A DNA stretch of 64,000 bases from a bacterium (GCA_963643205.1 CAVIJJ010000003.1:12055-76054); one strand, 5' to 3'. Numbered from the stretch's first letter, positions 2,032 to 43,701 are shown. The notes: generated by a model not told the origin, from the sequence alone. Made by a program: numbers and translations.

Positions 2032-3336
2032 TCAGATGCCGTACTCCCCATCCTTTACGGTGAGGGTTTTGGAATAGAACACCTTCATGGCCTTAACAAG
2101 GCTGTCTATATCCTCGGCGCCAGCGGTTTCATAGCAGGAATGCATGGCAAGCTGCGGCAGACCTATATCAACCGTGCTTACGGCAACCTTTGTATTGGCA
2201 ATGCTGCCGAGCGTGCCGCCGCCCGCAAGGTCCGAACGATTGGCAAATACCTGCACCGGCGCTTCCGCGTCCGCGCAAACCTGCCTGAAGAGCGCGGCGG
2301 AGATGCCGTCGGTAGTATATTTCTGGTTGGCGTTGAACTTGATAACAATACCCTTGTTCATATAGGGGCAATTGTCAAAATCCGAATACTCGGGGTGGTT
2401 GGGGTGCTGAGCGTGCGCGTTGTCGGCCGATACCATAAAGCTTTGGGCTATCATGGCAATATACTCCTCCTCGTTCTTGCCAAGGTTCAGGGCGATGCGC
2501 CTTAAAAGATCGCGCATAATGTTGGATTCCGCGCCCTGCTTGGTGGAGCTGCCGGTTTCCTCATTATCAAACACGCAGCAAACGGGAATGCTGCCGCTCT
2601 CCTCTGCGTTCATAAAGCCTTCCATGCAGCCGAACGCGCACTCCGTATCGTCAAGCTTGGGGGAGGCGATATACTCATCGTTTCTGCCAAGGAACGTGGG
2701 CGCGGTGCGGTTATAAAGATAAAGGTCGTGACCTATTATATCCTCCGCCTTTAAGCCTATGCTTTCGGCTACGGTCTGCATAAATGTTCCCTTGCCGTTT
2801 TCATCGGAGAAGAGGGGCAGAGTATCTATATTTGCCTTTATCTCAAAGCCGTTGTTGGCGGTTTTATTCATATGAATACAAACGCTCGGGATTATAACAA
2901 GGTCCCTGTCTATATTGACAAGCCTTGATGAGATGCGGCCGTTCTCCCCGCGCACAAGCACGCGGCCGGCAATCGAAAGCGGCCGATCGAACCAGGTTGC
3001 CATAAGCGCGCCGCCGTAGCGCTCGGTGCTGAGCTGAACATAGTGCGCGCCGACCTTTTCGGGATTATCCTTTATCTTAAACGTAGGCGAGTCGCTGTGC
3101 GCCGCGGAAATCATAAAGCCCGCCACGGGGTTTGACGGCACGCGAAACGCCATTATGGTTGATCCGTTGGGCGAAACATAGTACTTGCCGCCGCGGCAAA
3201 GCTTCCACGCCTGCTCGGTATAAAGCTTGGTGTAGCCCTTTTCGTTAAGCGCTTCCTCCAGATTGGCCACAACCTGATACCTTGTGGGGCTCTTCTTCAT
3301 GAAATCCAGCAGTTTTACGGCGTTCTCGTTTTTCAT
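2032..3336 (-). CDS. M18-family aminopeptidase (aspartyl aminopeptidase-like)
   Basis: 434 aa with full-length resemblance to M18 aminopeptidases (SPTRYQV..., AAHSDSP, CVFDNEETGS, DIGLPQLAMHS). AAAGGAG RBS. Confidence 0.85.
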   Translation of the reverse strand: MKNENAVKLLDFMKKSPTRYQVVANLEEALNEKGYTKLYTEQAWKLCRGGKYYVSPNGSTIMAFRVPSNPVAGFMISAAHSDSPTFKIKDNPEKVGAHYVQLSTERYGGALMATWFDRPLSIAGRVLVRGENGRISSRLVNIDRDLVIIPSVCIHMNKTANNGFEIKANIDTLPLFSDENGKGTFMQTVAESIGLKAEDIIGHDLYLYNRTAPTFLGRNDEYIASPKLDDTECAFGCMEGFMNAEESGSIPVCCVFDNEETGSSTKQGAESNIMRDLLRRIALNLGKNEEEYIAMIAQSFMVSADNAHAQHPNHPEYSDFDNCPYMNKGIVIKFNANQKYTTDGISAALFRQVCADAEAPVQVFANRSDLAGGGTLGSIANTKVAVSTVDIGLPQLAMHSCYETAGAEDIDSLVKAMKVFYSKTLTVKDGEYGI

Positions 3337-3376
3337 TGGTGTGTCTCCTTTGTATTAATTTTTTAGTTAAAATGCT

Positions 3377-3499
3377 AATAGTCAATTCCCGCTGCTCTGA
3401 TTGTCAACTTTCCCCGCCCCAATTGTCAACTTTTGTGTTGCGAATAGTCAACATTTGCGGTTCGGATTGTCAACTTTTCATTCCAAAATGTTGACTATT
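3377..3499. repeat. five direct 22-bp-periodic repeats with core (A/G)AT(A/T)GTCAA(C/T), plus one inverted copy
   Basis: Core hexamers sit at 3380, 3402, 3424, 3446 and 3468, an exact 22-bp spacing. The inverted copy GTTGACTATT is at 3490-3499. On the minus strand each unit reads AAAGTTGACAAT, which is -35-like. Confidence 0.9.
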
Positions 3500-3502
3500 G
3501 AA

Positions 3503-3829
3503 TTATTCTTCCCTGTTTTGAGATCTTTCGGTACTGAAACCTTCGGGGTAGCGGCGGCGCAGCTTTTCAATATTGCCCGCGAATATGGTTTCAAGGTCCG
3601 TATCAAGCGCGTACGCGGCCTCCGCAAGGTACCAGGCTATGTCGCCAAGCTCTTCCTTTAGTGCCTCTTTGTTGAGCGGGTGCCCCTGAGCGTACCACTT
3701 TTTGACTATGTCTATCGATTCGCCGGACTCCCCGCAAAGGCCCATCACGCTGTTTATAAGCGCGGACTCCTTGTTCAGATCCTTATTCAATGTTTTAAGC
3801 GCAAGGCTTTGATATTCGTTGATTGTCAT
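3503..3829 (-). CDS. MazG-like nucleotide pyrophosphohydrolase (small, single domain)
   Basis: GLCGESGE...KEELGDIAWYLA matches the metal-binding EExxE/D helices of the MazG/all-alpha NTP-PPase family. Confidence 0.8.
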   Translation of the reverse strand: MTINEYQSLALKTLNKDLNKESALINSVMGLCGESGESIDIVKKWYAQGHPLNKEALKEELGDIAWYLAEAAYALDTDLETIFAGNIEKLRRRYPEGFSTERSQNREE

Positions 3830-4609: not shown

Positions 4610-5944
4610 TTACGACACAGTTTGGGTGTCGTCTTCCTTGGATTTCTCCTCCTTACTTATAACGCAATGCACTATTCTGTGCTCAAACACCTTGTCAACC
4701 TCCGCGTGTATGCCCGAAACGGATACGGTAAAGCGGCTGCCGTCGGCGGGAATAATGTCAAACTGAGAGAATATAAGGCCGCCCAGGGTATCGAATTCCT
4801 CGGTGGGAAGCTCTATATCGAAAAGCTCCGCTATGTCCTCAAGCGACGCGCGGCCGCCGGTTGAGTATTTGCCGCCGCCCAGGGGCTTTATGGTTTCCTC
4901 CGAATCATCGTCGTCTATATCGCCGACTATCTGCTCAACTATATCGTTCATTGTGACTATGCCGCTCATGCCGCCGTATTCATCAAGCACAACGGCAAAA
5001 TGATTGCGCGTGCGGCGCATTTCCCTGAAAAGATCGTCCGCCTTAACGCTTGCGGGCACAAACAGGGGCGCTGTTACGGCGGCTTTCATAACGTTTTCGC
5101 GCGAACGGTCGCTAAGCTTAAGATAGTTTCTCGCAAGGAGTACGCCTATAACGTCGTCCGGCGTTTCACCGCATACGGGATAGTGCGAATGGTTGGTTTC
5201 CTTTATGGTTTTCTCCCATTCCTCGTCGCTTTCCTCACTCCAAAGCATATCCACCATTGTTCTGTGGGTAAGCATATCGCCGGCCTCAATATCATTAAAC
5301 TCAAACACGTTTTGCAGCAGCTCCTTTTCGCCCGCCTCTATGGCGCCCTTTTCGCTGCCCGCGTCTATCATCATGCGGATTTCGTCCTCGGTAAGCTCGT
5401 TTTCCTCCTCGTTGGGATCAACGCCCATAACCTTAAGCACAAGATTGGTGCTCGCGGTAAGCAGCCACACAATGGGCCTGAACAGGGCGGATATAAAGGA
5501 AATAAGCCCGCTCAGCGCAAGGGCGATTTTCTCCGCCTTTTTCATGGCAAGGCGCTTTGGCACAAGCTCGCCGAAAACAAGGGTGAAGAAGCTGAGTATA
5601 AGCGTTATAACAACAACGCTTACGCTGTTCAGAACATGGGCGTTTATGTTTACGCCTGATGATTGTATAATGCTGACAAGCCTGTCCGCAAAGTTTTCCG
5701 CGGCAAAGGCGCTGCCCAAAAATCCCGCAAGGGTTATGGATATTTGTATTGTTGCCAAAAAACGCGCGGGCTGAGAGGTTAGTTTAGTTAGCCTTGCTGC
5801 CCTTTTGTCGCCGTCCGACGCAAGCTTTGTAAGCTTAACTTCGTTAACGGAAAGCACGGCTATTTCAGCGCACGCGAAAACAGCGTTCAGCAGAATGAAC
5901 AAAGCCTGCAGCAGCAGTAATCCTATAAGCGGGTCGTCTTCCAT
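4610..5944 (-). CDS. CNNM/CorC-type transporter (DUF21 membrane domain + CBS pair + CorC_HlyC), the so-called hemolysin family
   Basis: N-terminal 4-TM DUF21, a central CBS pair and a C-terminal CorC_HlyC-like region. This is the typical TlyC/CorC architecture. Confidence 0.85.
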   Translation of the reverse strand: MEDDPLIGLLLLQALFILLNAVFACAEIAVLSVNEVKLTKLASDGDKRAARLTKLTSQPARFLATIQISITLAGFLGSAFAAENFADRLVSIIQSSGVNINAHVLNSVSVVVITLILSFFTLVFGELVPKRLAMKKAEKIALALSGLISFISALFRPIVWLLTASTNLVLKVMGVDPNEEENELTEDEIRMMIDAGSEKGAIEAGEKELLQNVFEFNDIEAGDMLTHRTMVDMLWSEESDEEWEKTIKETNHSHYPVCGETPDDVIGVLLARNYLKLSDRSRENVMKAAVTAPLFVPASVKADDLFREMRRTRNHFAVVLDEYGGMSGIVTMNDIVEQIVGDIDDDDSEETIKPLGGGKYSTGGRASLEDIAELFDIELPTEEFDTLGGLIFSQFDIIPADGSRFTVSVSGIHAEVDKVFEHRIVHCVISKEEKSKEDDTQTVS

Positions 5945-7388: not shown

Positions 7389-8468
7389 TTGGGTAAAAAA
7401 ATAGCCCGTATCGTTATAGCGGTAGCGGGTGCCGTCATAGGCCTTGCGCTTACGGCGGGAGTGGACAGAGTGCTGGCGATGATGAATCGCCTTCTTTTGC
7501 ACGAGGCAGTATATATTGCGGCGGCCATTTTATCAGCAATCATATTTTATATTTTATCTCCCCGCATAATAGAGCTGTTTTCGCGCTTAGTGGGCGGAAT
7601 TGAGGCCAGGATGAGCAACATGTCCCTTTCGGACATAATGCTTGGCGCTTTCGGGCTTATAGTGGGCCTTCTTATAGCGCTGCTGCTCAGCACGCTTACG
7701 TCAAGCCTGCCGGGACTTTTGGCGTTTATAATAAACGCCGTCCTTTACTGCACGTTTGGCTACCTTGGCTGCGCGCTTGTGCTTAAGCGCAGGGGCGAAA
7801 TAAATTTTCCATCGTGGTTTCATCGCCCGGGCAAGGCCGGCAAATCTTCGTCCGCGGCTTCAGTCTCCGGCGCGAGGCCGAAGGTTTTGGACACGTCCGT
7901 TATAATAGACGGGCGCATTGCCGATATATGCCAAACCGGCATGCTTGAAGGGCAGCTTATAGTGCCGGCTTTTGTGCTGGCGGAGCTTAGGCACATAGCG
8001 GACAGCGCGGACACGCTTAAGCGCAACCGCGGCAGGCGCGGGCTGGACATACTCAACCGCATGCAGAAGGAGCAGAACATTCCCATAAAGGTTGTGGATA
8101 CCGATTACGAGGACATCGCGGAGGTTGACGCAAAGCTTATACGCCTGGCTTATGACATGGGCGGCGTGGTTGTTACAAACGACTACAACCTTAATAAGGT
8201 AGCGGGCGTTCAGCGGGTACCCGTATTCAACATAAACGAGCTTGCCAATGCCCTTAAGCCCATGGTGCTTCCGGGCGAGGAAATGATGCTTACAATAGTA
8301 AAAGAGGGCAAGGAATACGGCCAGGGCGTAGGCTACTTAAACGACGGCACAATGATAGTTGTGGACGGCGGCAAGCGCTACATAGGCGAGGAAGTGGCGG
8401 TTATAGTAACAAGCGCGCTTCAGACCGCCGCCGGCAGGCTTATATTCGCGAAGCTTAAAGATTTATAA
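7389..8468 (+). CDS. yacL: PIN/TRAM domain membrane protein (YacL-like)
   Basis: N-terminal TM helices, a PIN domain (VLDTSVIIDGRI...) and a C-terminal TRAM-like beta domain. TTG start 8 nt after GGAGGA. The carD-yacL synteny is typical of Firmicutes. Confidence 0.8.
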   Translation: MGKKIARIVIAVAGAVIGLALTAGVDRVLAMMNRLLLHEAVYIAAAILSAIIFYILSPRIIELFSRLVGGIEARMSNMSLSDIMLGAFGLIVGLLIALLLSTLTSSLPGLLAFIINAVLYCTFGYLGCALVLKRRGEINFPSWFHRPGKAGKSSSAASVSGARPKVLDTSVIIDGRIADICQTGMLEGQLIVPAFVLAELRHIADSADTLKRNRGRRGLDILNRMQKEQNIPIKVVDTDYEDIAEVDAKLIRLAYDMGGVVVTNDYNLNKVAGVQRVPVFNINELANALKPMVLPGEEMMLTIVKEGKEYGQGVGYLNDGTMIVVDGGKRYIGEEVAVIVTSALQTAAGRLIFAKLKDL

Positions 8469-8491
8469 AAATAAATAAAAGAAGGTGCAGC

Positions 8492-10189
8492 ATGAGGCAA
8501 AGTGAACTTATACGCGCGGCATACGAGGGCAAAAACACGCTGGTTATAAAAAACGCCAACGTTGTTAACGTGTTTACGAACGAAATCGTTCACGCGGACG
8601 TTGCCGTATATGAGGACGTTATAATAGGCGTTGGGTCATTTAGCGGAGAAAACGAGATAGACGCCGAGGGGGCGTATCTCGCGCCGGGCTTTATAGACGC
8701 GCATGTGCACATAGAAAGCAGCATGGTTATACCTTCCTCCTTTATGAAGGTTATAATGCCGCACGGCACCACAACCGTTATAGCCGACCCGCACGAGATA
8801 GCGAACGTTGCGGGAGTGGCCGGCATAAGGGCCATGTATAAGCTTACGGACGATCTGCCGCTGAGGGTGCTTTTCATGCTTCCCTCCTGCGTGCCGGCAA
8901 CCCCGTTTGAGCACAGCGGCGCAAAGCTTGTGGCGGAGGATATGGAGCAGTTTATGCGCAAAAGCCGCATACTCGGCTTGGGCGAAGTTATGGACGCGAA
9001 CAGCGTTATAAACTGCAGTCAGGAGATGCTTGATAAGCTTAGGCTTTTTGACAAGCGCCCCATAGACGGCCACGCTCCTCTGCTCAGCGGCATGGGGCTT
9101 AACGCTTACCGCGTGGCCGGGGCGTTCAGCGACCACGAATGCTCAACCTATGAAGAGGTTAAGGAAAAGCTTGCCACAGGTATGAACATACTGCTTAGAA
9201 TCGGCAGCGCCGCCAACAATATGGACGACGTTATGCGACGCATAGCCGAAGAAAAGCTGCCCACCGAAAACATGATGTTCTGCACGGACGACAAGCACAT
9301 AGAGGATATAAGGAGCAAGGGCCACATAAACGCTAACGCGCGCATGGCCGTTGCCGCGGGTATAGACCCGATAGAGGCTATAAAAATGGCCTCCTACAAC
9401 GCCGCCCGTGCCTACGGCATAAAGGGAATAGGCGCCATAGCCCCGGGCTACAAGGCGGACATGGTTCTGCTTGAGGATCTTAAGGACTTTAAGGTTAAGC
9501 AGGTTATAACCCGCTTTGGCGTGCCTTACAGCGGCGATGAGCCCATACCCTCCCCCATACTTCCCCCGCAGGTATTCAACAGCGTGCGCCTGCCGGAAAT
9601 CACAAAGGAAAATCTCGCGCTTAAGTGCCATGTAAGCGCGCCGGTTATAAAAATGCTGCCTCATCAGCTTGTGACGGAGCTTGTATACAGGGATGTGCAG
9701 CGCGATGAGGACGGCTGTTTTGTGCCCGGTAACGGCTTAATAAAGCTTGCCGTAATAGAACGCCACCACGCTACCGGCAATATCGGCCTTGGCATACTTG
9801 AAGGGCTTGGGCTTAAGCACGGCGCCGTAGCGGCTACCGTTGCGCACGACAGCCACAATTTGGTGGTTGCCGGCGATAATGACGAGGATATGCTTATGGC
9901 GATAGAGTCGCTTAGGGAATGCGGCGGCGGATACAGCGTTGTAAGCCGCGGCGTGGTTCTGGCGAGACTCCCCCTGCCCATAGCCGGCCTTATGACGGAC
10001 GCGCCCGTGAACGAGGTGCTTGAAATTCAGCAGGCGCTGCTTGAGGCGCTTTACAGCCTGGGTACCAAGCGGGACAGCGATCCGCTTATAGCTCTCTCCT
10101 TTATGGCTCTGCCGGTAATACCGGCGGTCAAGCTTACGGACGAGGGACTTTTTGACGCGGTAAATTTCAAATTTATAAAATATAATTAA
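8492..10189 (+). CDS. ade: adenine deaminase
   Basis: 565 aa with GFIDAHVHIESS metal-binding motif and the length and architecture of the Ade family. Confidence 0.85.
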   Translation: MRQSELIRAAYEGKNTLVIKNANVVNVFTNEIVHADVAVYEDVIIGVGSFSGENEIDAEGAYLAPGFIDAHVHIESSMVIPSSFMKVIMPHGTTTVIADPHEIANVAGVAGIRAMYKLTDDLPLRVLFMLPSCVPATPFEHSGAKLVAEDMEQFMRKSRILGLGEVMDANSVINCSQEMLDKLRLFDKRPIDGHAPLLSGMGLNAYRVAGAFSDHECSTYEEVKEKLATGMNILLRIGSAANNMDDVMRRIAEEKLPTENMMFCTDDKHIEDIRSKGHINANARMAVAAGIDPIEAIKMASYNAARAYGIKGIGAIAPGYKADMVLLEDLKDFKVKQVITRFGVPYSGDEPIPSPILPPQVFNSVRLPEITKENLALKCHVSAPVIKMLPHQLVTELVYRDVQRDEDGCFVPGNGLIKLAVIERHHATGNIGLGILEGLGLKHGAVAATVAHDSHNLVVAGDNDEDMLMAIESLRECGGGYSVVSRGVVLARLPLPIAGLMTDAPVNEVLEIQQALLEALYSLGTKRDSDPLIALSFMALPVIPAVKLTDEGLFDAVNFKFIKYN

Positions 10190-10219
10190 AGCCGCTTCCG
10201 GCGGAAAGGAGCTTGCCCA

Positions 10220-12508
10220 ATGGGCGTTATAGGACAAAGCGTAACGCGCGTGGACGCGCCTGACAAGGTTACGGGCCGCGCGAAATACACGGACGATCTT
10301 GCCGACCGCTCCGCGCTGATAGCCAAAATACTTCATTCAACCATTGCTCACGGCTACGTAAAAAGCATTGATATTTCGGAGGCCGAGAAAGTAAACGGCG
10401 TTGTAAAAATTGTAACCTGCTTTGACGTACCCAATATACCCTTCCCCACGGCGGGACACCCCTGGAGCACGGATCCGCATCATCAGGATGTTGCGGACAG
10501 GCTGCTTCTTAATCGCCATGTACGCTACTACGGCGATGAAATAGCGGCGGTTATAGCGCGCGACGAAGTGAGCGCCGCCCAGGCGATACGCGCCATTAAG
10601 GTTGAATACGAAACGCTGCCGTTTGTGCTGGACCCGATAGAGGCCATGCAGGACGGCGCGCCGCAGGTTCACGAGGAACGTGATCACAACATACTCGCCC
10701 ACACATCTTATGAGGACGGCGACTATGAGGAGGCCATAAAGGAGCCGGGCCTTATAGTTATAGACAAGTGGTACAATACCCCCACCGTTCAGCACTGCCA
10801 CATAGAAAACCACATATGCTTCGCCTACGAGGAAGCGAACAAAATAAACGTTGTAAGCTCCACGCAGATACCGCACATTGTGCGCCGAATTGTCGGCCAG
10901 GCGCTTGGGCGCGACTGGGGCAGCGTGCGCATAGTAAAGCCCTATATAGGCGGCGGCTTCGGCAACAAGCAGGACGCTCTTTATGAGCCGCTCTGCGCCT
11001 ATCTTTCAACGGTTGTTGGCGGCAGGCTTGTTAAGCTTGACGTAAGCCGAGAGGAAACATTTGTAAGCAACCGTGTACGCCACGCGATAAGATACCACAT
11101 TATTTCGCACGTTCGTCCGGACGGCACGTTTGTCGCCGGCAGGCTTTGGGCCTATTCCAACCAGGGCGCTTACGCGAGCCACGGCCACAGCATCTGCGCC
11201 AAGGGCGCTGGCGCGTTCAGGCAGCTTTACCGCTACCGCAACGCCTGCAAGGGAGACGCCTACACAATTTATACAAACATGCCCACGGCGGGCGCAATGC
11301 GCGGCTACGGCATTCCGCAGATGATGTTCGCTATGGAAAGCCACGTGGACGACATAGCGAAAAGGCTGAACATACCCCCGCTTAAGCTTAGGCAAATGAA
11401 CCTGATGGAGGTTGGTTACAAGGACGAATTCTCCAAAAACGAAAACTATTTCGACAGCTTTAATCAGTGCATAGCCAAGGGCATGGAGTATATTGACTAC
11501 GAGCGCAAGCTTGAGGAATATTCCCACGATACCGGCCCCATCCGCCGCGGCGTAGGCATGGCCGTGTTCTGGTACAACACCGCCGTATGGCCAATATCGC
11601 TTGAAAGCTCCTCCTGCCGCATGGTGCTCAATCAGGATGGCTCCGTGCAGCTTCAGCTTGCCGAAACCGAAATAGGTCAGGGCGCGGACACGGCATTCAG
11701 CCAGATGGCGGCGGACGAATTAAGCCTGCCGCTTGAAAAGGTTCACATTATATCCGCCCAGGACACGGACGTTACCCCCTTCGGCACCGGCGCTTACGCC
11801 AGCCGCCAAACGTACGTGGGCGGTTTTGCCGTGCAGCAGACGGCGCGCCTGCTTAAGGAGCGCATACTCAACTACGCCCACGAGCTTACCCGCATGACGG
11901 TTCATAATTTGGACCTTGAGGACGGCTACATTATAAACGTAAATAATCACAGGCAGCTTTTAAGCCTTAAAGAGCTTGCCACAACCGCGCTTTACAGCCT
12001 GGAGCACAGCCAGCATATTACGGCCGAAAGTACCTACCAGATAAAGTCAAACGCGTATTCGTTCGGCTGCTCCTTCGCGGAGGTGGAGGTTGATATTCCC
12101 CTTTGCAAGGTAAAGCTTGTGAATATTATAAATGTGCACGACTGCGGCAGGCTTATAAACCCCGCGCTCGCGGCGGCGCAGGTACACGGCGGCATGAGCA
12201 TGGCCATAGGCTACGGGCTTAGCGAGCAGCTGCTTTTTGACAAGAAGACAGGCCGCGCGCTTAACAACAACCTGCTCGACTACAAGATTTCAACCATGAT
12301 GGACCATCCGCACCTTGAAGCGCAGTTTGTGGAAAACTATGAGCCCACAAGCGCATACGGCACAAAGGCGCTTGGCGAGCCGCCCGCGACAAGCGGCGCC
12401 CCCGCCATAAGAAACGCCGTGCTTAACGCAACAGGCGTGGAAATAGACTCCGCTCCCCTTACGCCGCACATTCTGTTTGAGCGGTTCCGTGAGGAAGGGC
12501 TTATATAA
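10220..12508 (+). CDS. xdhA: xanthine dehydrogenase family, molybdopterin-binding large subunit
   Basis: 762 aa. N-terminal Ald_Xan_dh_C region (KVTGRAKYTDD) and a GGGFGNK motif; about the size of E. coli XdhA. Confidence 0.9.
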   Translation: MGVIGQSVTRVDAPDKVTGRAKYTDDLADRSALIAKILHSTIAHGYVKSIDISEAEKVNGVVKIVTCFDVPNIPFPTAGHPWSTDPHHQDVADRLLLNRHVRYYGDEIAAVIARDEVSAAQAIRAIKVEYETLPFVLDPIEAMQDGAPQVHEERDHNILAHTSYEDGDYEEAIKEPGLIVIDKWYNTPTVQHCHIENHICFAYEEANKINVVSSTQIPHIVRRIVGQALGRDWGSVRIVKPYIGGGFGNKQDALYEPLCAYLSTVVGGRLVKLDVSREETFVSNRVRHAIRYHIISHVRPDGTFVAGRLWAYSNQGAYASHGHSICAKGAGAFRQLYRYRNACKGDAYTIYTNMPTAGAMRGYGIPQMMFAMESHVDDIAKRLNIPPLKLRQMNLMEVGYKDEFSKNENYFDSFNQCIAKGMEYIDYERKLEEYSHDTGPIRRGVGMAVFWYNTAVWPISLESSSCRMVLNQDGSVQLQLAETEIGQGADTAFSQMAADELSLPLEKVHIISAQDTDVTPFGTGAYASRQTYVGGFAVQQTARLLKERILNYAHELTRMTVHNLDLEDGYIINVNNHRQLLSLKELATTALYSLEHSQHITAESTYQIKSNAYSFGCSFAEVEVDIPLCKVKLVNIINVHDCGRLINPALAAAQVHGGMSMAIGYGLSEQLLFDKKTGRALNNNLLDYKISTMMDHPHLEAQFVENYEPTSAYGTKALGEPPATSGAPAIRNAVLNATGVEIDSAPLTPHILFERFREEGLI

Positions 12509-12525
12509 AGGAGGTCACATAAAAT

Positions 12526-13407
12526 ATGTATGATATAAAGGCGCTGTATGAGGCAAGCAGCGTAAAAGAAGCGATAGAGCTTATGCAGCAGCATCCGCAG
12601 GCGAAGATAATAGCCGGCGGAAGCGACGTGCTTATAAAGCTGCGCGAGGGTAAGCTTGCCGGATGCGAACTTGTAAGCATATACGGCATAGACGCGCTGC
12701 GCGGCATAAGCCTTGACGAGGACGGCACGCTGAGAATACTGCCGCTTACAAGCTTTTCGCACATAACGAAGAACGACCTTATAAATGAGCACATAAAGGT
12801 TCTGGGCGAGGCTGTGGACATGGTAGGCGGCCCGCAGATAAGAAACATAGGCACAATAGGCGGCAACATATCAAACGGCGTAACGAGCGCGGACAGTTCA
12901 AGCACCCTGCACGCGTGGGACGCGATAGTTGAGCTTACGTCCGCGGACGGAGTAAGGCAGCTGCCCATAAAGGAATACTACGTAAGCGCGGGCAAGGTTG
13001 CCCTGCGCCCGGCGGAGCTGCTTACGGCCATACTTATTCCAAAGAAGAGCTATTCAGGCTACAAGGGGCACTATATAAAATACGCCATGCGAAACGCCAT
13101 GGATATAGCCACCCTGGGCTGTTCTGTAAACGCGAAGCTGAGCGAGGACAAAAAAACAATTGTTGACGCGCGCATAGCCTACGGCGTTGCGGGTCCCGTT
13201 CCCATGCGGGCACCGAGCGCGGAGGAAGCGGCCCGCGGCAAAGAGGTTTGCCAGGCAACGATAGACGCGTTTGCCGATGCCGCGTTGGGCGACATAAACC
13301 CCAGAGACAGCTGGCGCGCCAGCCGCGATTTCAGGCTGCATATAGCGCACGAGCTTGCAAAGCGCGCGCTTAGCGAATCGATACGCCTTTCGGGAGGTGA
13401 ACTGTAA
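12526..13407 (+). CDS. xdhB: xanthine dehydrogenase FAD-binding subunit
   Basis: 293 aa FAD_binding_5/CO-dehydrogenase flavoprotein type (IIAGGSDVLIKL, GNISNG). Confidence 0.9.
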   Translation: MYDIKALYEASSVKEAIELMQQHPQAKIIAGGSDVLIKLREGKLAGCELVSIYGIDALRGISLDEDGTLRILPLTSFSHITKNDLINEHIKVLGEAVDMVGGPQIRNIGTIGGNISNGVTSADSSSTLHAWDAIVELTSADGVRQLPIKEYYVSAGKVALRPAELLTAILIPKKSYSGYKGHYIKYAMRNAMDIATLGCSVNAKLSEDKKTIVDARIAYGVAGPVPMRAPSAEEAARGKEVCQATIDAFADAALGDINPRDSWRASRDFRLHIAHELAKRALSESIRLSGGEL

Positions 13408-13904
13408 TGAGCCAGACGAAGCTTATTAAATGCACGATAAACGGCGAATATGTTGAAAAAATGATAGACGTTCGCGCCTCCCTTACGGATATGCTGAGGA
13501 ACGATTTTCGCCTTACGTCCGTTAAAAAGGGCTGCGAGGTTGGCGAATGCGGAGCGTGCAACGTTATAATAGACGGCGAATGCTTTAACTCCTGCATTTA
13601 CCTTGCCGTTTGGGCGGACGGCAAGAATATACGCACGCTTGAAAGCCTGCTTGGCCCCAACGGCGAGCTTTCGGATATTCAGCAGGCGTTTGTGGACGAG
13701 GCCGCCGTGCAGTGCGGTTTCTGCACCCCCGGCTTCATAATGACGGCCGTGGAAATACTTGAAAGCGGCCGCCGCTACACGCGCGACGAGCTCAGAAAGC
13801 TTTTAAGCGGGCATCTTTGCCGCTGCACCGGATATGAAAACATACTCAACGCGGTTGAGAAAACCATGAACAAAAGGCTTAGCGAGAAAGAGAGCGCAAA
13901 GTAA
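13407..13904 (+). CDS. xdhC: xanthine dehydrogenase [2Fe-2S] subunit
   Basis: 165 aa with both 2Fe-2S motifs (GCEVGECGACNV; CGFCTPG...CRCTGY). Its start overlaps the xdhB stop by 1 nt. Confidence 0.9.
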   Translation: MSQTKLIKCTINGEYVEKMIDVRASLTDMLRNDFRLTSVKKGCEVGECGACNVIIDGECFNSCIYLAVWADGKNIRTLESLLGPNGELSDIQQAFVDEAAVQCGFCTPGFIMTAVEILESGRRYTRDELRKLLSGHLCRCTGYENILNAVEKTMNKRLSEKESAK

Positions 13905-34106: not shown

Positions 34107-35366
34107 TTATTTGTTCAGGGCCTTTTTGGCCTTGCGCATGGCAAGTATACGGTTCATCTCGTTGTAAACGATCATGTAACCCTCGTCAACACCCATACCG
34201 GGCTTTGCCAGAATCTGCACGGGCTTGGTGGCCATGGCGCAGTTTACGCAAACCTGGGCGCTGCGGTCGGTTTCGTTGCAGGTACCGCCCTGATAGGCGC
34301 CGATGCCTTTTTCCTTGCAGTAAAGAACGGCCTCGATGGTGTTGTTGATGCCGCCAAGGTCAGGGGTTTTAATCTGAACCATGTGACCGGCCTTATTGTC
34401 GGCAAACAGCTTTATATCCTCAAGGGTGTTGCACCACTCGTCGGCAACCAGCTCCACGTTGATGCCGCGCTTGTCCAGTTCCTTGGTAAGGCCGGCAAGG
34501 GCGACCAGCTGGGTTTCACGGTCGCAGTCGCAGTCCATGGGGCCTTCAATGCGAAGGTGGAAGGGCTTGGCGATCTCTTCAAGCTTGGCGATGTAGTCGG
34601 CCATAGCCTCGTAGTTATTGTTGCCGAAGGCGGCGCCGATGGTGCCGTATACGTCAATATGCATAATGGGCATGTAGTTGGGATCGGTGCGGTTGTTCAG
34701 AATGCGATCGCGCAGCCAGCCAACGTACTCGGCAAGCTTCTCGCCGTTACGGCCAAGCTTGGTGTCCACGTTGTTTATAAGGGCATGGGGCAGAACCTGG
34801 GCGCCCTTTATGATCATCTTGTCGGCGTTGTCATAGCGATCGTCGCCGGACTGGGTGAATATGGGGATGGGCTCCTCGGATACGGTGCAGCCGTACTCAT
34901 CCGCGACAACCTCGCACATAAGGCGGCCGGTAGCCTTGGCAACGGCATCCAGTATAGCCTGGGATACGCCGTAGCGGATAGCGGTGTGCAGGCGCTTGCC
35001 GTTTACCTGAATGGCCTCCATCATCTTGCACAGGCCGCGGAAGTCATCGGCTTCCTTGCCCACAAGCTCGGGCTTGATGTACTTATCGATAATGGGGATA
35101 AAGTCCTTTGCAAGGAACAGGGGATCACGTCCGCCGGCACCGGAGTACTGAACGGCAGCGCAATCACCAAAGGCGATCTGGCCATCCTCAAGAACGATCA
35201 TAACGGAGATGGACTCACCGGCCTGACGCACGGAAGTGAAGCCCTCGGTAACAGGCTCGCCTACATAGAATACGCCGTCATGACCGGCGCCCTTCTTAAT
35301 GGCCCTCTGGTCATCGAAATAAAAACCGGTACGACCCGCGGAGCAAACAACGTCAACAATTTTCAT
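34107..35366 (-). CDS. mal: methylaspartate ammonia-lyase
   Basis: MKIVDVVCSAGRTGFYFDDQRAIK N-terminus and 419 aa enolase-superfamily length match clostridial beta-methylaspartase. Confidence 0.92.
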   Translation of the reverse strand: MKIVDVVCSAGRTGFYFDDQRAIKKGAGHDGVFYVGEPVTEGFTSVRQAGESISVMIVLEDGQIAFGDCAAVQYSGAGGRDPLFLAKDFIPIIDKYIKPELVGKEADDFRGLCKMMEAIQVNGKRLHTAIRYGVSQAILDAVAKATGRLMCEVVADEYGCTVSEEPIPIFTQSGDDRYDNADKMIIKGAQVLPHALINNVDTKLGRNGEKLAEYVGWLRDRILNNRTDPNYMPIMHIDVYGTIGAAFGNNNYEAMADYIAKLEEIAKPFHLRIEGPMDCDCDRETQLVALAGLTKELDKRGINVELVADEWCNTLEDIKLFADNKAGHMVQIKTPDLGGINNTIEAVLYCKEKGIGAYQGGTCNETDRSAQVCVNCAMATKPVQILAKPGMGVDEGYMIVYNEMNRILAMRKAKKALNK

Positions 35367-35397
35367 AATCTGTAACCTCCCAATTTAGTTTTCAAAA

Positions 35398-36849
35398 TTA
35401 ATACCTGGGGCGGCCAACAAGGCGGCCCTTGCCTATGGCGTAAACGTCGTCAATAACCATCTGGAACGTGGCGTCACGCTTTTCGGCCTTGGCGCGCTCG
35501 TTTATCTTGGCGGCGTGGAACTCCTTAAGTTCCTTGGTGAAGGGCAGATTGCCCATGTTCAGTATGCGCACGGCGCCGTCGTTATCGCGGCAGGGGAGCA
35601 TAAGGCCGGCATTGGCGCGGCAGGGAGCAAAGGGAACGTCCAGCGCGCCGGACTCTACGCCGCGGCAAACGCCTATGGCTATATCGCCCTGGCCCAGCTC
35701 AAAGCACTTATCAACAATGCACCTGGTCTCCTCGCGGATAATCTCAATTTCCTTATCAAGGCGGGAATCCATAAACACCTGATCGGTCATCATGTTAACA
35801 ACCTGCTTGGTGCAGCGCAGGCCCTCGGCATTGGCTTCCATGGTGGGGATACCCACGGCCTCGTGGGGGCTCTTTACTATAACCTTGGTGGCCTTGGACA
35901 GAGCGGCTATCATGCTGCCGGACGCGATAACGCCGAAAGCCTTCGCCTCGTCCGCGGGGAAACCGCCCATCCACTGGTGCAGAACGGTGGTAACCACAAC
36001 GTCCTTATGGCCGTACTTTTCAAGATATTCATCGGTCTGCTGCTCAAGGGCGCGAATGGCCGCTATATCCTGAACCAGATTGCCGCACTGGCCGTAGCCT
36101 ACGGTTATGTTCTTTACGCCCTGCTCTGCCGCAAGAAGCGCCTCTATAATGGCAACGGCGTTGGAAATGCAGGGGGGAACCAGAGTGCCGGTCAAAGGAC
36201 CGTAGGGCTCACGGTTTATGGAAACACCCATTTCCTCATAAAGGCCGGTAAGGCGGTCAACATACTGCCAATCCTTTATGGTGCGCTCCATGGGGATATT
36301 CTTGCAATAAGGCAGGTTGTAGGAAATGCCGCCGCCCTCGTAGCTGGTGAAACCGCCGGCATAGGCAATTTCGGTAAGAAGGCGCGCGTCGGGGGTGCCG
36401 TGGCGAACCTGCAGCGGAGTATTTACGCTTTCAACAACGCGGCGGCAATTGGCAACGCCGTGGTTAACCGCCGGGAAGCCATTGAGCATGGCGCGGCCAA
36501 GCCTGATGGACTCGGCTATGCCGTTCTCCGCCTCTTCGTAGCGGTTCTGGCGGGTGTAGCTGTCTATAGTGGTGGGCAGAAGATCCGCCTCGCCCTTATC
36601 CTGCAGATACTGCATCAGCTTAATGTGCTCCTCTATTACGGGCACGCCCGCGCGGGGCTGTACCAGCGTATGGTGAGTTGCCTTGGCCGCGATAAGCTTC
36701 TTTGAGAAGATGCGGCTTTCGGGCATGGATTTATGGTAGTCTACCGCCTCCTGCAGGTCTACGTCCTTACCGGTGGGCCACTGGGTCAGGACCTCTTTGC
36801 GGAGTCTGGCAAATTCATCATCAGGAATTCTCTTGTTTTGAATGTCCAT
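35398..36849 (-). CDS. glmE: glutamate mutase (methylaspartate mutase) epsilon/E subunit
   Basis: Full-length GlmE/MutE similarity. The ATG at 36849 (AAGGAG 10 nt upstream) gives 483 aa, the length I recall for clostridial GlmE. The ORF-track TTG at 36858 is too close to the RBS. Confidence 0.92.
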
Positions 36850-38224
36850 TATATTCAAGCTCCTTTTTCATAATTCTAAGTGCTGTCTGGGGGTAATGGG
36901 TTGAAAGCAAGCCCATCGCGGCCAGTATGTATTTTCTGTCAACCCAGATGTCCGCCTCTTTGGGGCGCAATGATTCGGGCTGCTGTATGCTGTAAAGGGC
37001 ATGGGAAGCGATTTCGGCCGTGCGCTTGGTGTGTATCAGGCTGCCGCCGGTTACTATAATCTGCTTTACCCTGGTCAGGTCCTTTCCGGCCTGAACAAAG
37101 GTTTGCCCCATCATGGTGTATGTTTCCTCTATCGTTCCGGCGTGGCGGGATACGGCCACCTCAATGGCCAAAGACGCAAGGGCAAAATCCAGCGCTTCAA
37201 GCTCCTTATCGTCGCCCGGAACAATGTCCGTATGGGTTCCCAGGTAATCCACAAGCTCGCTGACGCGCTCGGGAGTAAGGCCCGAAAGCCTGCTCACCCT
37301 GTCCAGTCCCGCGGCGTCCACTATTCCGTGGATGCTGTAGCGCATGCCTATGTCGCCCTCTACGGTGCGCTTTGAGAAGGGTTCGGGCAGGCCCTTATAA
37401 ACGGTGTTCATGTGCTCCGGCATGCCGTCGGCTATGGAGTACACGTCCGTGGTGGCGCCGCCTACGTCAACCGCTACCAAATCGCCTATGCCTATTTCGC
37501 CTTCACAGCCCTGGCTTAAAAGGTTCATTGCCTGAAGCACGGCCGAGGGAGTAGGCATCATAATATCGGAAAGCAGGGACGCGGCCTGAGTCAGGCCCTT
37601 TGCCTGCACTATCCTGCGCAGGAATATATCCCTTATCTGCTTCTGCGTGGCCTCTATGCGCAGCACACCGAACTTAGGCATAACGTTTTCGCAGATGTAA
37701 ACCTCGCACCCGTCCAGTATGCGCCGGCATTCTCTTGCCGCCGTGCGGTTGCCCGCTATTACTATCGGGAACGACGGCTTGATGGAGGCAAGCATTTTGG
37801 CGTTGTGCAGTATGCACTCGGTGTTGCCGCCGTCCGTGCCGCCAACCAGCAGGAATATGTCCGGCCTGGCCCGCTGAATATCCTCCAGGTCATCTTCGGT
37901 CAGCTGAAACGAGTATACCTGAATCACTTTCGCTCCCGCGCCCAGGCTCGCGAGCTTCGCGGCCTCGCTGGTCAGCTCCGGCACAAGGCCGCTTGTGATC
38001 ATTCTCAGGCCGCCCGCGGCCGAAGAGCAGGCATAGGTTTCCGTAAAGTCCAGTTTTCCGCAGACCGCCTCAAGCTCGGCAAGGCCTTTATGCAGACCGT
38101 CATTGATATCGGTCTGTACTGTTGTATACGCCGCGGCTGTGCCGAGGAGCTCCTCCCCTTCCACGTCAACGGCGGTAAGTTTTGTGTAAGTACTTCCGAA
38201 ATCGATGAGTAAAACCGGTTTCAC
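36821..38224 (-). CDS. glmL: glutamate mutase-associated MutL/GlmL (ASKHA-fold reactivase/chaperone)
   Basis: [17 protein letters not shown]-terminus and its position between glmS and glmE. The 3' end overlaps glmE by 29 nt. Confidence 0.88.
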
Positions 38225-38231
38225 TGTATTT

Positions 38232-38714
38232 TCATCCTTCCATGTGCAGCAGTTCTTTAAGAGCCGCTATAGTGGTTTCGGGAGTGGTTCCCGGGGGGAA
38301 CGCGCGGTCAAAGCCCATGGCCTTAAAGCGCTTTTCCACTTCCTCAAAGGGCTGCTTGCCTATAACGATGTTTCCGCCAACCACGAGGGGAATACCCTTA
38401 AGGCCGGCTTCGTCGCACTTTTCGCGCATACCCTGGCAGTCAAGCTCTCCCTGTCCGTACAGAGAGGAAATAACGATGGCATCGGCATTGGACTCGATGG
38501 CGGCGGCAATGTACTCTTCCTGAGATACCATAACGCCAAGATTGACCACATCAAAGCCCGCCTCTGTGAAAGCGTGGTACAGGATTTTGTTGCCCACGGC
38601 ATGAACATCCGCACCGATTACGCCGATCACCAGAACCTTTTTCTTTTCCTGCGTTTCACCGCATGTGGTGACTTCTTTGTTTTCCATGTTCCTCATGTTC
38701 TCCATGTTCTTCAT
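38232..38714 (-). CDS. glmS: glutamate mutase sigma/S subunit (B12-binding)
   Basis: [14 protein letters not shown] contains the DxHxxG B12-binding motif. The N-terminus is uncertain because four in-frame ATGs lie in a 9-nt tandem repeat. Confidence 0.9.
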
Positions 38715-38820
38715 GATTTCGTAGTCTCAACGCATTTAAGCCCCGAAAACAAGCTTTTTCGGGCGGCAGGCAAGTCATCAGCACCTTCTCCGCCAGCTTA
38801 ATGTATTGTTCTATATCTAT

Positions 38821-38849
38821 ATACTACAATGAACTATAACATAAGTCAA
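38821..38849 (-). promoter_or_regulatory. sigma-A promoter of the glmS-glmL-glmE-mal operon (TTGACT-17-TAGTAT)
   Basis: On the minus strand, TTGACT is at 38849-38844 and TAGTAT at 38826-38821. ATTGT-N16-ACAAT dyad symmetry overlaps the -10/+1 region. Confidence 0.55.
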
Positions 38850-38886
38850 GACAAAAGGGATTTTTTCTTTGATAATTCTTTGGGGG

Positions 38887-38916
38887 CAAAAAAACTCCCC
38901 GCAAGATGCGGGGAGC
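38887..38916 (-). terminator. intrinsic terminator after the GntR gene
   Basis: CTCCCCGC / GCGGGGAG stem followed by a 7-nt U-run on the minus strand. Confidence 0.8.
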
Positions 38917-38931
38917 GTAGAAGCTGTTTCT

Positions 38932-39915
38932 TTATATTTTCTGTTTTTCGCGCAGGCGGTCTATCTTTTCGGTTAAATACATAAGCGAGCCTTCGTCCAC
39001 CTGATAGGCGCACTGGATCAGATGCCCCGCGCCCTCAAACCGCTTAAGCCAATGCATTATTTCTCCTGAGCAATACTTTTCGTAGTTTTCCGGCACAAGT
39101 ATGGCCGTTTTGTCGAAAAAGTACGCGTTCCAGTCAATGTCCTGATCCGTAAGCACGGGTTCGGAAACAGATACCTGCTCGGTATAGGTGGAGCCCAGCT
39201 CATGAAGCAGGCGGCCGAAGCGCTGGCTTCTGCAAACTATTCCCACCCGCTCCCCGGCGGGGAGCTTTACTATTTTGGCCACGCTGTCCGGCCTCAGGCG
39301 AAGGGCAATCTTGGCTATTTTATTCTTCTGGGAAATTCTGCTTCCTATATCTTCCGCGTGCTCGGCCGTTGTAACCACCAGGTCCATATCCTCGCTTATC
39401 TTATACGGATAAGCCACAATATCGTCCAGCAGATAGGAATACCAGTCCACCTGCCTTATCCCCCTCAGCTGTACCATAAGCTGAGAAAGAATCTCCGGAT
39501 TGCATTCAACAACCGCTATTTTCAGGTTTTGCTGCTTTGCGGCCCTGTCCCGCAGGCGAAGGTTAAGGAAAATATTGATTTCCGCCATGGAAAAATCCAT
39601 GCCCTCCAGCTGCTCAATCAGGGAGTCTATCGCGGCCATGGCGCGTTCCTTGCGGCTGTCCGAAGAGGTGGGCTGGTAGCGCACAAACGTGCCGCGGCCC
39701 TGGATTTTTTCCACAATGCCCAGCTGCTCAAGCTCATCATAGGAGCGCTTTATGGTTCCCCTGGCAACGCCAAGCTCATCCGCAAGGTCGCGAACGGTGG
39801 GCAGCTGCATACCCGGGGGCATTTTCCCGTTTTTCACATTGGAACGGATTACGTCCACAAGCTGACGATATATAGGAATACCCAGCTTTGGATCCACCTG
39901 ATACAGTTCAGACAA
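38932..39915 (-). CDS. GntR-family transcriptional regulator with a large unassigned C-terminal domain
   Basis: N-terminal wHTH (PIYRQLVDVIR...LPTVRDLADELGVARGTIKRSYDELE). TTG start 7 nt after GGAGG. Confidence 0.85.
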   Translation of the reverse strand: MSELYQVDPKLGIPIYRQLVDVIRSNVKNGKMPPGMQLPTVRDLADELGVARGTIKRSYDELEQLGIVEKIQGRGTFVRYQPTSSDSRKERAMAAIDSLIEQLEGMDFSMAEINIFLNLRLRDRAAKQQNLKIAVVECNPEILSQLMVQLRGIRQVDWYSYLLDDIVAYPYKISEDMDLVVTTAEHAEDIGSRISQKNKIAKIALRLRPDSVAKIVKLPAGERVGIVCRSQRFGRLLHELGSTYTEQVSVSEPVLTDQDIDWNAYFFDKTAILVPENYEKYCSGEIMHWLKRFEGAGHLIQCAYQVDEGSLMYLTEKIDRLREKQKI

Positions 39916-39997
39916 AAGTATACCTCCGCACTTTTTCCGCCATGGCGGAATTGATGGGGGGCAAGACTTCGCCTGCCCCGTTAGTGTTAGTTAATAA

Positions 39998-40555
39998 TTA
40001 TATTTGGCTTTCCAGATAAGCCTTGCGGCCGGTTTCGTAAAGGTTGTTACCCTCGCTGTCTATTACAACAACCACCGGGAAATCCTCTACCTCAAGGCGG
40101 CGGATGGCCTCCGCGCCCAGATCCTCATAGGCTATTACCTCGGCCTTTTTGATGCACTTGCTCAAAAGGGCGCCGCAGCCGCCGATAGCGCCGAAATACA
40201 CGGCACCGTATTTTTTCATGGCGGCTATTACCTCGGGTCCGCGCTTGCCCTTGCCTATCATGCCGGTTTCACCCTCGGCTATCATGGTGGGGCTGTAAGC
40301 ATCCATACGATAGGATGTGGTGGGGCCGGCGGAGCCTATGGCCTGGCCCTCCTTTGCGGGAGTGGGCCCAACATAATAAATAATGGAATCCTTAACGTCC
40401 ATGGGCAGGGGCTTACCCTGCGCGACCAGCTCACAAAGGCGCTTATGCGCGGCGTCGCGGGCGGTGTAGATTACGCCGGATATCAGGCAGCTGTCGCCGG
40501 ACTTAAGCTTTCTCGCGTCCTCACGGCTCAGCGGAGCGGTTACTTTGATTGGCAT
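39998..40555 (-). CDS. class I (Fe-S) fumarate hydratase-type hydro-lyase, beta subunit (probable mesaconase)
   Basis: 185 aa; GVIYTARDAAHKRL and GPTTSYRMD motifs of the Fumerase_C/TtdB family. Confidence 0.88.
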   Translation of the reverse strand: MPIKVTAPLSREDARKLKSGDSCLISGVIYTARDAAHKRLCELVAQGKPLPMDVKDSIIYYVGPTPAKEGQAIGSAGPTTSYRMDAYSPTMIAEGETGMIGKGKRGPEVIAAMKKYGAVYFGAIGGCGALLSKCIKKAEVIAYEDLGAEAIRRLEVEDFPVVVVIDSEGNNLYETGRKAYLESQI

Positions 40556-40556
40556 A

Positions 40557-41396
40557 TTACAGCACCTCCGTTTTATGGCGTGTTACGTGGCAGTTTATGT
40601 TCACGGCCACGGGCAGGCCCGCTATATGCGTGGGATAGGTTTCAATATTAACGGCCAGCGCGGTGGTCTTGCCGCCAAAGCCCTGAGGCCCAATGCCCAG
40701 CGCGTTTATCTTATCAAGCATTTCCTTTTCAAGATCGGCGTAATAAGGATCGCCGCTGCGCTGATCCACGGGGCGCATAAGCGCCTTTTTGGCAAGCAGA
40801 GCCGCCTTGTCAAACGTGCCGCCGATGCCTACGCCCACAACTATGGGCGGGCAGGGGTTGGGACCCGCGTCCTCAACAACCTTTATTATAAAGTCCTTAA
40901 CGCCCTCAAGTCCGTCCGAAGGCTTAAGCATCTTTATCTGGCTCATGTTCTCGCTGCCAAAGCCCTTGGGGGCAACGGTTATCTTAAGCTTATCGCCGGG
41001 AACGAGATCGTAGTAGATCATGGCGGGGGTATTGTCGCCCGTGTTTCCGCGGCGAATCGGGTCCTTTACAACACTCTTGCGAAGGTAGCCCTCGGTGTAG
41101 CCCTCTCTTACGCCCTGGTTTACAGCCTCGGCGATATCGCCGGATATGTGCACATCCTGGCCGATTTCCATAAATACGCAGGCAACGCCGGTATCCTGGC
41201 ATATGGGCTGGGGACGTTCATCGGCAATATTGAAGTTTTCGATTATGCGCTGCAGTATTTCCTGCGCGGGTGCCCAGGGTTCGTTCTGGCAGCTTTTCTC
41301 TATGCAGTTTTTCATGTCCTGCGGCAGGTGGCAGTTTGCCTCTATGCACAGGCGCTTTACCGTTTCGGTAATCTGCTTGGCGGAAATTTCCCTCAT
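40557..41396 (-). CDS. class I (Fe-S) fumarate hydratase-type hydro-lyase, alpha subunit (probable mesaconase)
   Basis: 279 aa; ICQDTGV and the conserved Cys ligand context of the Fumerase/TtdA family. Confidence 0.88.
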   Translation of the reverse strand: MREISAKQITETVKRLCIEANCHLPQDMKNCIEKSCQNEPWAPAQEILQRIIENFNIADERPQPICQDTGVACVFMEIGQDVHISGDIAEAVNQGVREGYTEGYLRKSVVKDPIRRGNTGDNTPAMIYYDLVPGDKLKITVAPKGFGSENMSQIKMLKPSDGLEGVKDFIIKVVEDAGPNPCPPIVVGVGIGGTFDKAALLAKKALMRPVDQRSGDPYYADLEKEMLDKINALGIGPQGFGGKTTALAVNIETYPTHIAGLPVAVNINCHVTRHKTEVL

Positions 41397-41408
41397 AATC
41401 GCTTCTCC

Positions 41409-43698: not shown

Positions 43699-43701
43699 GG
43701 C

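Follow-up and report, generated by a model that had tools for sequence, protein, structure and literature searches.

The array and its genomic neighbourhood

The window analysed here is the whole stretch of 64,000 nucleotides, and Pfam scans of its approximately 59 open reading frames (ORFs) characterized the organism as one of the Clostridia that ferments amino acids and purines. Its way of life is indicated by genes for adenine deaminase and xanthine dehydrogenase at 8492-13904 and by a cluster for glutamate fermentation by the methylaspartate pathway, with citrate-lyase-like genes and a GntR regulator, at 34107-45179. In a previous reading of the sequence without database searches (sequence-only reading), an array of repeated boxes had been placed between a MazG-like gene and a gene for an M18 aminopeptidase, and both flanking genes were recovered where they had been claimed. 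The neighbours of the array, MazG, Hsp20, CNNM and M18, show chromosomal synteny in five relatives. The features of the locus are as follows, with the contigs L222 and L223, which stem from sister strains described below, as reference for the gene-bearing allele:

3503-3829, minus strand: MazG-like gene, upstream of the array
3487-3498, plus strand: inverted copy (AATGTTGACTAT on the plus strand), forming a palindrome with box 5, of which it is the distal arm
3466-3477, minus strand: box 5 (AAAGTTGACAAT), distal direct repeat and proximal palindrome arm, same in L223 and L222
3444-3455, minus strand: box 4 (AATGTTGACTAT), same in L223 and L222, with substitutions in the adjoining spacers
3422-3433, minus strand: box 3 (AAAGTTGACAAT), by spacer comparison the extra unit relative to the gene-bearing allele (five versus four boxes)
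3400-3411, minus strand: box 2 (AAAGTTGACAAT), whose spacer CAGAGCAGC matches the third-box spacer of L223 (CAAAGC)
3378-3389, minus strand: box 1 (GGAATTGACTAT), degenerate and promoter-proximal, whose TTGACT (3385-3380) is orthologous to the -35 of the regulator gene in L222 and L223
3358-3363, minus strand: weak predicted -10-like hexamer AAAAAT, 16 nt after TTGACT
3352-3371, minus strand: junction segment TTTAACTAAAAAATTAATAC, at the place of about 1.1 kb in the gene-bearing allele (-10, leader and gene for a 349-aa regulator)
2032-3336, minus strand: M18 aminopeptidase gene, first gene downstream of the array, with the ribosome-binding site AAGGAGA at 3350-3344

The array consists of five direct boxes of the type AAWGTTGACWAT on the minus strand, which occupy 3378-3477 in an exact 22-bp phase, plus the inverted copy at 3487-3498. 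On the plus strand, the boxes start as ATAGTCAAT at 3378, ATTGTCAAC at 3400, 3422 and 3466, and ATAGTCAAC at 3444, and the core of the inverted copy reads GTTGACTAT at 3490-3498. Read 5' to 3' on the minus strand from MazG towards M18, the array starts with AATAGTCAACATTTTGGAATG (the inverted copy), followed in this order by AAAAGTTGACAATCCGAACCGC, AAATGTTGACTATTCGCAACAC, AAAAGTTGACAATTGGGGCGGG, GAAAGTTGACAATCAGAGCAGC, GGGAATTGACTATTAGCATTTTAACTAAAAAATTAATAC and AAAGGAGACACACCAATG. The spacers between the boxes are 9-10 nt long, G+C-rich and mutually unrelated, and only 12-13 nt of each 22-nt unit are conserved. Tandem Repeats Finder reported a period of 22, 3.6 copies and 71% matches, the last of which we back-calculated to a likeness of about 36% among the spacers. 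The motif ATWGTCAAC occurs 6 times in the window versus 0.58 times expected, a number that was reached in 0 of 100 shuffles. Direct reading of the sequence, Tandem Repeats Finder and the motif counts thus all confirmed the five boxes at exact 22-bp spacing and the inverted copy of the sequence-only reading. It has to be amended for the promoter-proximal box, which is degenerate.

We found no literature on the box sequence itself, and exact look-ups of the M18 and MazG proteins of the window returned no match. The boxes of Spo0A, CtsR, PhoP and DnaA were compared by eye, and none of them fits the conserved AAAGTTG core. With respect to transcription, the promoter and terminator scan gave no intrinsic terminator between the MazG-like gene and the array. 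A predicted -35/-10 pair with a spacing of 16-18 nt upstream of a gene is present both in the window and in L223. In the window, this is TTGACT-16-AAAAAT before M18, a predicted sigma-A promoter with a 9/12 match and a weak -10, so that M18 is most likely read from a hybrid promoter composed of the TTGACT of box 1 as -35 and the weak, fortuitous AAAAAT.

Gene-bearing and gene-less alleles in two species

The contigs L222 and L223 from sister strains of the same species share about 95% DNA identity with the window on both flanks. They show the order Hsp20, MazG, a 159-bp gap, a 349-aa gene, a 42-bp gap, M18, DUF308 and L31, i.e. the gene order of the window plus one gene, that of the regulator, between array and M18. 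Within the 159-bp gap, the inverted copy is followed by four boxes with 22-bp spacing, of which the first two are boxes 5 and 4 of the window; these two shared distal boxes are identical and substitutions are confined to the spacers. The last box provides the -35 of the predicted regulator promoter (TTGACT-17-TGtTATATT, extended -10, 10/12), followed by ribosome-binding site and ATG. Since no terminator was found between the regulator gene and M18 in this allele, transcription from the regulator promoter would continue into M18.

In the window, approximately 1.1 kb comprising the -10, the leader and the gene are replaced by the 20-nt segment at 3371-3352. In the blastn comparison of the window with L223, the upstream block of homology ends at 3403 (L223 2281) and homology resumes at 3351 (L223 3418); by eye, the upstream homology runs on with small indels through box 1 to approximately position 3372. 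Within this stretch, from box 2 to box 1 (3378-3411 versus L223 2254-2290), the 22-bp phase is kept by indels of +3 (AGC) and -3 (AAG). The full-length regulator protein of L222 and L223 (P0121, 349 aa) is 100% identical to a fragment on L001, a contig whose M18 is 99% identical to that of the window and on which a different gene lies directly upstream of M18, with the breakpoint at the ribosome-binding site. This gene fragment belongs to the regulator family, with 43% identity to a member from Thiolinea (E = 4e-66). In the 64-kb window, neither tblastn nor the HMM detected a gene of the regulator family, and the Pfam scans of the approximately 59 ORFs revealed no gene for a DNA-binding protein near the array.

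The same pair of alleles was found in a second species, where L224 carries the gene together with the inverted copy and 2 boxes, and L002, with 97% identity to L224 upstream, carries the inverted copy and 3 boxes without the gene. L002, whose M18 is 87% identical, has kept the arrangement MazG-array-M18; its three boxes follow each other at exactly 22 bp, and the distal ones have the sequence AAGTTGGATGT. Conservation in relatives, which the sequence-only reading had named as a check, is thereby borne out for the sister strains (L222 and L223) and for the second species (L224 and L002). In L125 and L126 (M18 with 80% identity), only one box is present and serves as the -35 of an ordinary promoter, and in relatives with M18 at 76-83% identity, M18 lies about 30 bp behind unrelated genes without any array. 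The previous assignment of the array to M18 was thus not upheld: M18 acquired the array via loss or absence of the intervening gene, and M18 of other relatives has no array.

In both species, the gene-less allele has one box more than its gene-bearing partner. The junction segments of the window and L002 are alike, with a score of 20 versus 11.5 +/- 3.2 for shuffles, 6 of 500 of which reached this score, and the gene-less junction segments resemble neither flank of the gene-bearing alleles. The extra box and the shared junction fit an old, maintained allele better than a recent deletion, and together with the phase kept by compensating indels they hint that such an allele may still be used in trans.

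The palindrome at the head of the array is also kept in L222 and L223, L224, L002 and L285, and its arms covary between loci (GTCAAC/GTTGAC, TCCAAC/GTTGGA and TTCAAC/GTTGAA). L285 carries a third copy of the regulator, 74% identical and antisense in a prophage, again with the layout of palindrome plus phased box: a perfect 12-bp palindrome, ATTCAACTTAAT-5-ATTAAGTTGAAT, is followed exactly 22 bp on by AAGTTGACA as -35 and, after 17 nt, by TATCTT. On this contig (L285 1-13053), the regulator copy lies between the small terminase gene and the HNH gene of the prophage, like a moron gene. Other genes of the locus also vary: in L002, and in this one strain only, a gene for an AbiEii toxin and that of a 197-aa partner lie between Hsp20 and MazG (8024-9456), and L224 is without MazG. 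The accessory insertions in L002 and the absence of MazG from L224 mark the interval between Hsp20 and M18 as a hot spot for accessory genes.

The regulator and its protein family

P0121 is a single chain of 349 aa that carries a winged helix at its N-terminus, followed by a GHKL kinase domain of SpoIIAB type and, at the C-terminus, the STAS-like DUF4325. In Pfam, the protein gave weak matches to HTH_20 and MarR_2 (ArsR/MarR-type) as well as matches to HATPase_c_2 and DUF4325. PADLOC and NCBIfam yielded only weak winged-helix matches and no name for the family. In structural comparisons, the AlphaFold model of the regulator (pLDDT 82) matched SpoIIAB (TM 0.78 on target) and RsbW best; no solved structure was found for any family member. 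The family comprises about 1,060 clusters at 50% identity (E ≤ 1e-30). The N, G1 and G2 boxes of the GHKL domain, i.e. the ATP-binding motifs, are invariant, and so is a Gly in the motif IGQGF of DUF4325. Judged by the SpoIIAA motif rather than by an alignment, this Gly appears to stand at the position of the canonical STAS phospho-serine.

The regulator genes are mostly monocistronic; the genes downstream of them are varied and in many cases are encoded on the other strand or at a distance of more than 100 nt, and no conserved partner gene was found beside the regulator in 60 loci. A tblastn search of phage and plasmid collections with P0121 gave no match. The literature that we found on DUF4325 is sparse, and none of it is about the wHTH-GHKL-DUF4325 architecture.

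Association of phased boxes with the regulator family

In order to search for further arrays by DNA pattern alone, viral and metagenome contigs were scanned blindly for two boxes with a free gap, AAAGTTGACAAT-N(0-30)-AAWGTTGACWAT. Among the viral contigs, 5 of the 8 matches had gaps of 9-10 nt. The metagenome contigs showed a peak at the same gap of 9-10 nt, corresponding to a 21-22-bp phase, with 39 of 109 matches, a count to which a few loci with tandem repeats, e.g. L184, contribute disproportionately. Many of the two-box matches turned out to have three to five boxes with unrelated spacers, as in the window. Phased GTTGACAAT boxes detected in this way by DNA pattern led to 16 loci (15 from the metagenome scan plus L014 from a genome scan) that encode a family member of approximately 350 aa according to tblastn and the HMM. 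Wherever the chain of boxes could be traced, the family gene begins just downstream of the array; the last box usually precedes the start codon by about 5-15 nt, and by more where extra degenerate boxes intervene.

The genome scan was performed with a loose three-box pattern (AAWGTTGR), and the matches listed were mostly unrelated tandem repeats of whole 22-bp units from many phyla, with only L014 being useful. In this contig of a Thiolinea metagenome-assembled genome (MAG), around 5634-5800, a three-box array and the regulator gene adjoin a putative tRNA 3' end, recognized by eye, and a terminator. tRNA 3' ends are typical sites for integrated elements. Among the matches listed were also arrays of 3-11 copies of the 22-bp tandem unit AAAGTTGAAGYCATGYAATTTC in several MAGs of Bacteroidota (Saprospiraceae, Chitinophagaceae and Prolixibacteraceae; L020, L062, L073, L074, L082, L096, L097 and L109). 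The Nocardioidaceae MAG141 contributed more than 10 separate arrays of the 22-bp unit AATGTTGGTGCGCCGAGCCGTC to the matches listed (L010, L019, L023, L035, L039, L056, L057, L067, L084 and others), which suggests a dispersed repeat family.

For the converse test, 60 family loci were collected by protein similarity only, which gave 40 distinct upstream regions. Chains of TTKACA at 21-23 bp, at most 150 nt from the start codon, were present in 9 of these 40 regions; the 222 control upstream regions, which were taken from the same loci, contained none, and neither did the 2000 shuffles. Six other spacing classes were applied to the 40 family regions, of which five gave 0 and that of 27-29 bp gave one locus. 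The strict hexamer thus captures only 9 of the 40 unbiased loci, which we count against the assignment of the array to this family. In a subgroup from Firmicutes, the boxes instead read AGTTAA and recur every 21 bp across the -10 and the leader, and an inverted copy is located at the -35.

The type of box was found to track the predicted recognition helix of the protein: SRQA[VI]NxH goes with TTGACAAT, SLNTVYRY with AGTTAAAA and STAAVYSQ with AAGTTGAC. The box GTTGACAAT is also used by proteobacterial members, the recognition helix of which differs from that of the clostridial protein. Since the same box occurs with differing helices, its conservation may partly reflect a double use as -35 (TTGACA) and -10 (GACAAT). 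As in L222 and L223, L224, L285 and the 16 loci detected by DNA pattern, the array of the window has at least two direct boxes at 21-23 bp that overlap a predicted promoter; the family gene does not follow immediately downstream and is found at the orthologous position in L222 and L223.

Interpretation of the array and alternative explanations

Since phased boxes are associated with family genes across loci, we consider it probable that the array serves the wHTH-GHKL-DUF4325 gene family as its promoter-operator module, most likely an autoregulatory one. With the gene absent in this strain, the module would be orphaned and now lies directly before M18. The sequence-only reading had proposed a same-face array for a DNA-binding protein as opposed to simple stacked promoters, and this part of it fares well in the comparison of genomes: the array corresponds to the conserved upstream module of a family with a predicted winged helix, the gene of which is present at the locus in sister strains.

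The distal boxes and the palindrome exceed the needs of a promoter, are specific for the family and change with the protein, from which we infer binding by the winged helix and autoregulation. In such a mechanism, the winged helix of the regulator would bind AAGTTG-type boxes; binding would nucleate at the palindrome and spread on one face of the DNA over the 22-bp-phased repeats until the -35 is covered. This would repress the promoter of the regulator itself and any read-through from it. By analogy with the CapK/CapS system discussed below, the kinase and STAS domains may switch DNA binding on a signal. The orphan array in the window could be a recent relic, or it could be used in trans by a paralogue elsewhere in the genome, e.g. 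in a prophage.

An extended version of this reading holds that these single-chain partner-switching factors polymerize head-to-tail on 21-22-bp boxes that are at the same time their own -35 and -10, that orphan arrays are under selection, and that a regulator copy elsewhere, e.g. in a prophage (compare L285), controls M18 in trans. The orphan arrays are read as selected because the phase is kept by compensating indels, there is an extra box, and the junction is common to two species. Taken as a whole, we regard this version as rather unlikely. If it were true, regulators of mobile elements would have become wired into host metabolism, here via the M18 aminopeptidase. The reading of the array as an orphaned promoter-operator module would in itself offer a concrete, testable cis-element for a widespread, unstudied protein family. 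The pair of alleles in two species constitutes a natural experiment on the fate of an operator array once its regulator is gone, and could show whether a housekeeping peptidase came under the control of a mobile regulator. For genome annotation, the lesson would be that a periodic array before a gene may belong to a gene that has vanished.

Alternatively, the boxes could be sigma-A elements only, with TTGACAAT acting as -35 (TTGACA) and, one unit later, as -10 (GACAAT, spacer of 17-18 nt), resulting in overlapping promoters without a dedicated regulator. The promoter scan indeed found TTGACA-18-GACAAT and TTGACT-18-GACAAT pairs inside the array and listed two box-to-box pairs, boxes 3 to 2 and boxes 4 to 3, as promoter-like. 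The previous claim that no -10 follows the distal boxes is therefore only partly right, since the next box supplies a GACAAT or GACTAT 18 nt after the preceding TTGACA. The peak at gaps of 9-10 nt in the collection scans equals spacers of 17-18 nt, the distance of 5-15 nt between the last proteobacterial box and the start codon fits a -10 of a near-leaderless mRNA, and an identical box occurs alongside different recognition helices. Against this explanation, the distal boxes of L002 and L224 (GTTGGATGT or GTTGGATAT, GTTGGAT type) would make a poor -35 or -10 and yet are in phase, and the inverted copy matches them exactly in L224 and with one mismatch in L002. The AGTTAA boxes that lie over the -10 and the leader in the Firmicutes subgroup are no promoter hexamers, a promoter would not require three to five boxes and a covarying palindrome, and the architecture is specific to one gene family, given its absence from the control upstream regions (0 of 222). 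We therefore judge promoter elements as the sole content of the array to be unlikely. The related proposal of a decoy array for sigma-A is not needed, but the boxes do serve a second time as predicted promoter hexamers.

A function at the level of RNA would require a MazG-M18 co-transcript, in which the hairpin and the repeated AAAGUUGACAAU motifs serve processing, stability or protein binding. Such a transcript would be in line with the lack of a terminator between MazG and M18, and the hairpin arms formed by the inverted copy and box 5 show two compensatory changes and one G-U pair among four sequences. The fold of the array RNA, with a z-score of -1.9, was only marginally better than that of shuffles, though, and no Rfam family reached the gathering score, with nothing but noise at E < 10. 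Covariation of the arms is equally expected of a binding site for a dimer, the proximal box is a canonical -35 in the gene-bearing alleles, and in L224 and L285 the architecture is not part of an operon but follows a terminator or is flanked by phage genes that diverge. All this renders an RNA element very unlikely in comparison with a promoter-operator module.

LytTR-type regulators bind 9-bp direct repeats separated by 12-13-bp spacers, which amounts to a period of 21-22 bp. Their consensus is reportedly WMMGTTNRK, as given by Nikolskaya and Galperin in 2002, and AAAGTTGAC fits this consensus at 8 of 9 positions, with a 13-nt spacer completing the 22 bp (9 + 13). As in the sites of AgrA, ComE and PlnC, AGTT-containing direct repeats with such spacers lie beside or over a -35. 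LytTR sites, by contrast, usually consist of a pair of repeats to which a protein with a LytTR domain binds, whereas the arrays described here co-occur with a winged-helix fusion, i.e. with a different DNA-binding family, in the sister strains as well as across phyla. The consensus is loose, and the Pfam scans of the approximately 59 ORFs of the window revealed neither a LytTR gene nor that of another response regulator. Binding of the array by an AgrA/ComE-like response regulator is thus highly improbable.

The period of 22 bp is also typical of the iterons of R6K, pPS10 and RK2, which are direct repeats on one helix face as well, many whole-unit 22-bp tandem arrays exist in genomes, and plasmid initiators also autoregulate through iterons. 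We nevertheless see next to no chance that the array represents origin iterons or a partition site as in plasmids or phages, and the iteron analogy of the sequence-only reading was abandoned: the setting is chromosomal and housekeeping, without replicon context, origin features, an initiator gene or any rep or par gene found near the array in the window, about half of each unit (12-13 of 22 nt) is conserved as opposed to nearly the whole unit (17-22 bp) in iterons, the boxes overlap the predicted sigma-A promoter of a non-replication gene with the proximal box as its -35, and the associated protein had no tblastn match in the phage and plasmid collections.

Comparison with known regulatory systems

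CapK and CapS are two proteins of the architectures HTH-STAS-GHKL and STAS-wHTH, respectively, that are encoded upstream of immune operons (PMC13373217). CapS, a repressor that also regulates itself, occupies both its own promoter and the downstream one cooperatively and is released by the kinase (Chambers et al., EMBO J 2026, PMC13373217); its operators are palindromic, with TTAA half-sites separated by 1 bp or 10 bp (PMC13373217). The family described here shares with this damage-responsive system the same three kinds of domains, namely a helix-turn-helix, an anti-sigma-type GHKL kinase and STAS, as well as the status of accessory genes with a patchy distribution. It differs in that the domains are joined in one chain in the order wHTH-GHKL-STAS-like instead of being distributed over two genes, and in that the boxes, a palindrome plus 21-22-bp-phased direct repeats of the AAGTTG/TTGACAAT or AAGTTGAC type, are not TTAA palindromes. 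The genes are, moreover, mostly monocistronic without a fixed partner, and the gene downstream of the array is that of M18 and not an immune operon. Judged by analogy, CapK/CapS appears to be the closest known system; the family follows its logic but is not a member of it.

SpoIIAB/SpoIIAA and RsbW/RsbV resemble the regulator in parts: its central domain superposes on SpoIIAB (TM 0.78 on target) and RsbW, and its C-terminus is STAS-like. These proteins are, however, separate polypeptides that control sigma factors and have neither a DNA-binding domain nor an operator array.

A divergent promoter region elsewhere in the window

The sequence-only reading had also pointed to a recurrence of a 12-mer of the array at 50290-50301 and derived from it a regulator possibly shared with the divergent region of arcC. 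This link was not supported: comparing 123 nt with 128 kb (both strands), approximately 0.9 exact 12-mer matches are expected, so the match is at chance level, and the hexamers in that region are ordinary back-to-back -35s. The predicted promoters are TTGACA-18-TATACT for arcC and TTGACA-17-TAATGT for the Cys-rich gene. At 50293-50316, the -35 hexamers of these two divergent promoters form the palindrome TGTCAAC-N8-GTTGACA, from which the minus strand would be transcribed towards a Cys-rich small protein and a NagA-like amidohydrolase, and the plus strand towards arcC (GTG at 50397).

Near the end of the window, at 60508-63342, a protein that resembles [FeFe]-hydrogenases of the sensory type and contains a PAS domain is directly followed by a SpoIIE/PP2C phosphatase. 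The gene of a catalytic hydrogenase (58937-60430) adjoins these two, which look like a signalling pair for the sensing of hydrogen.
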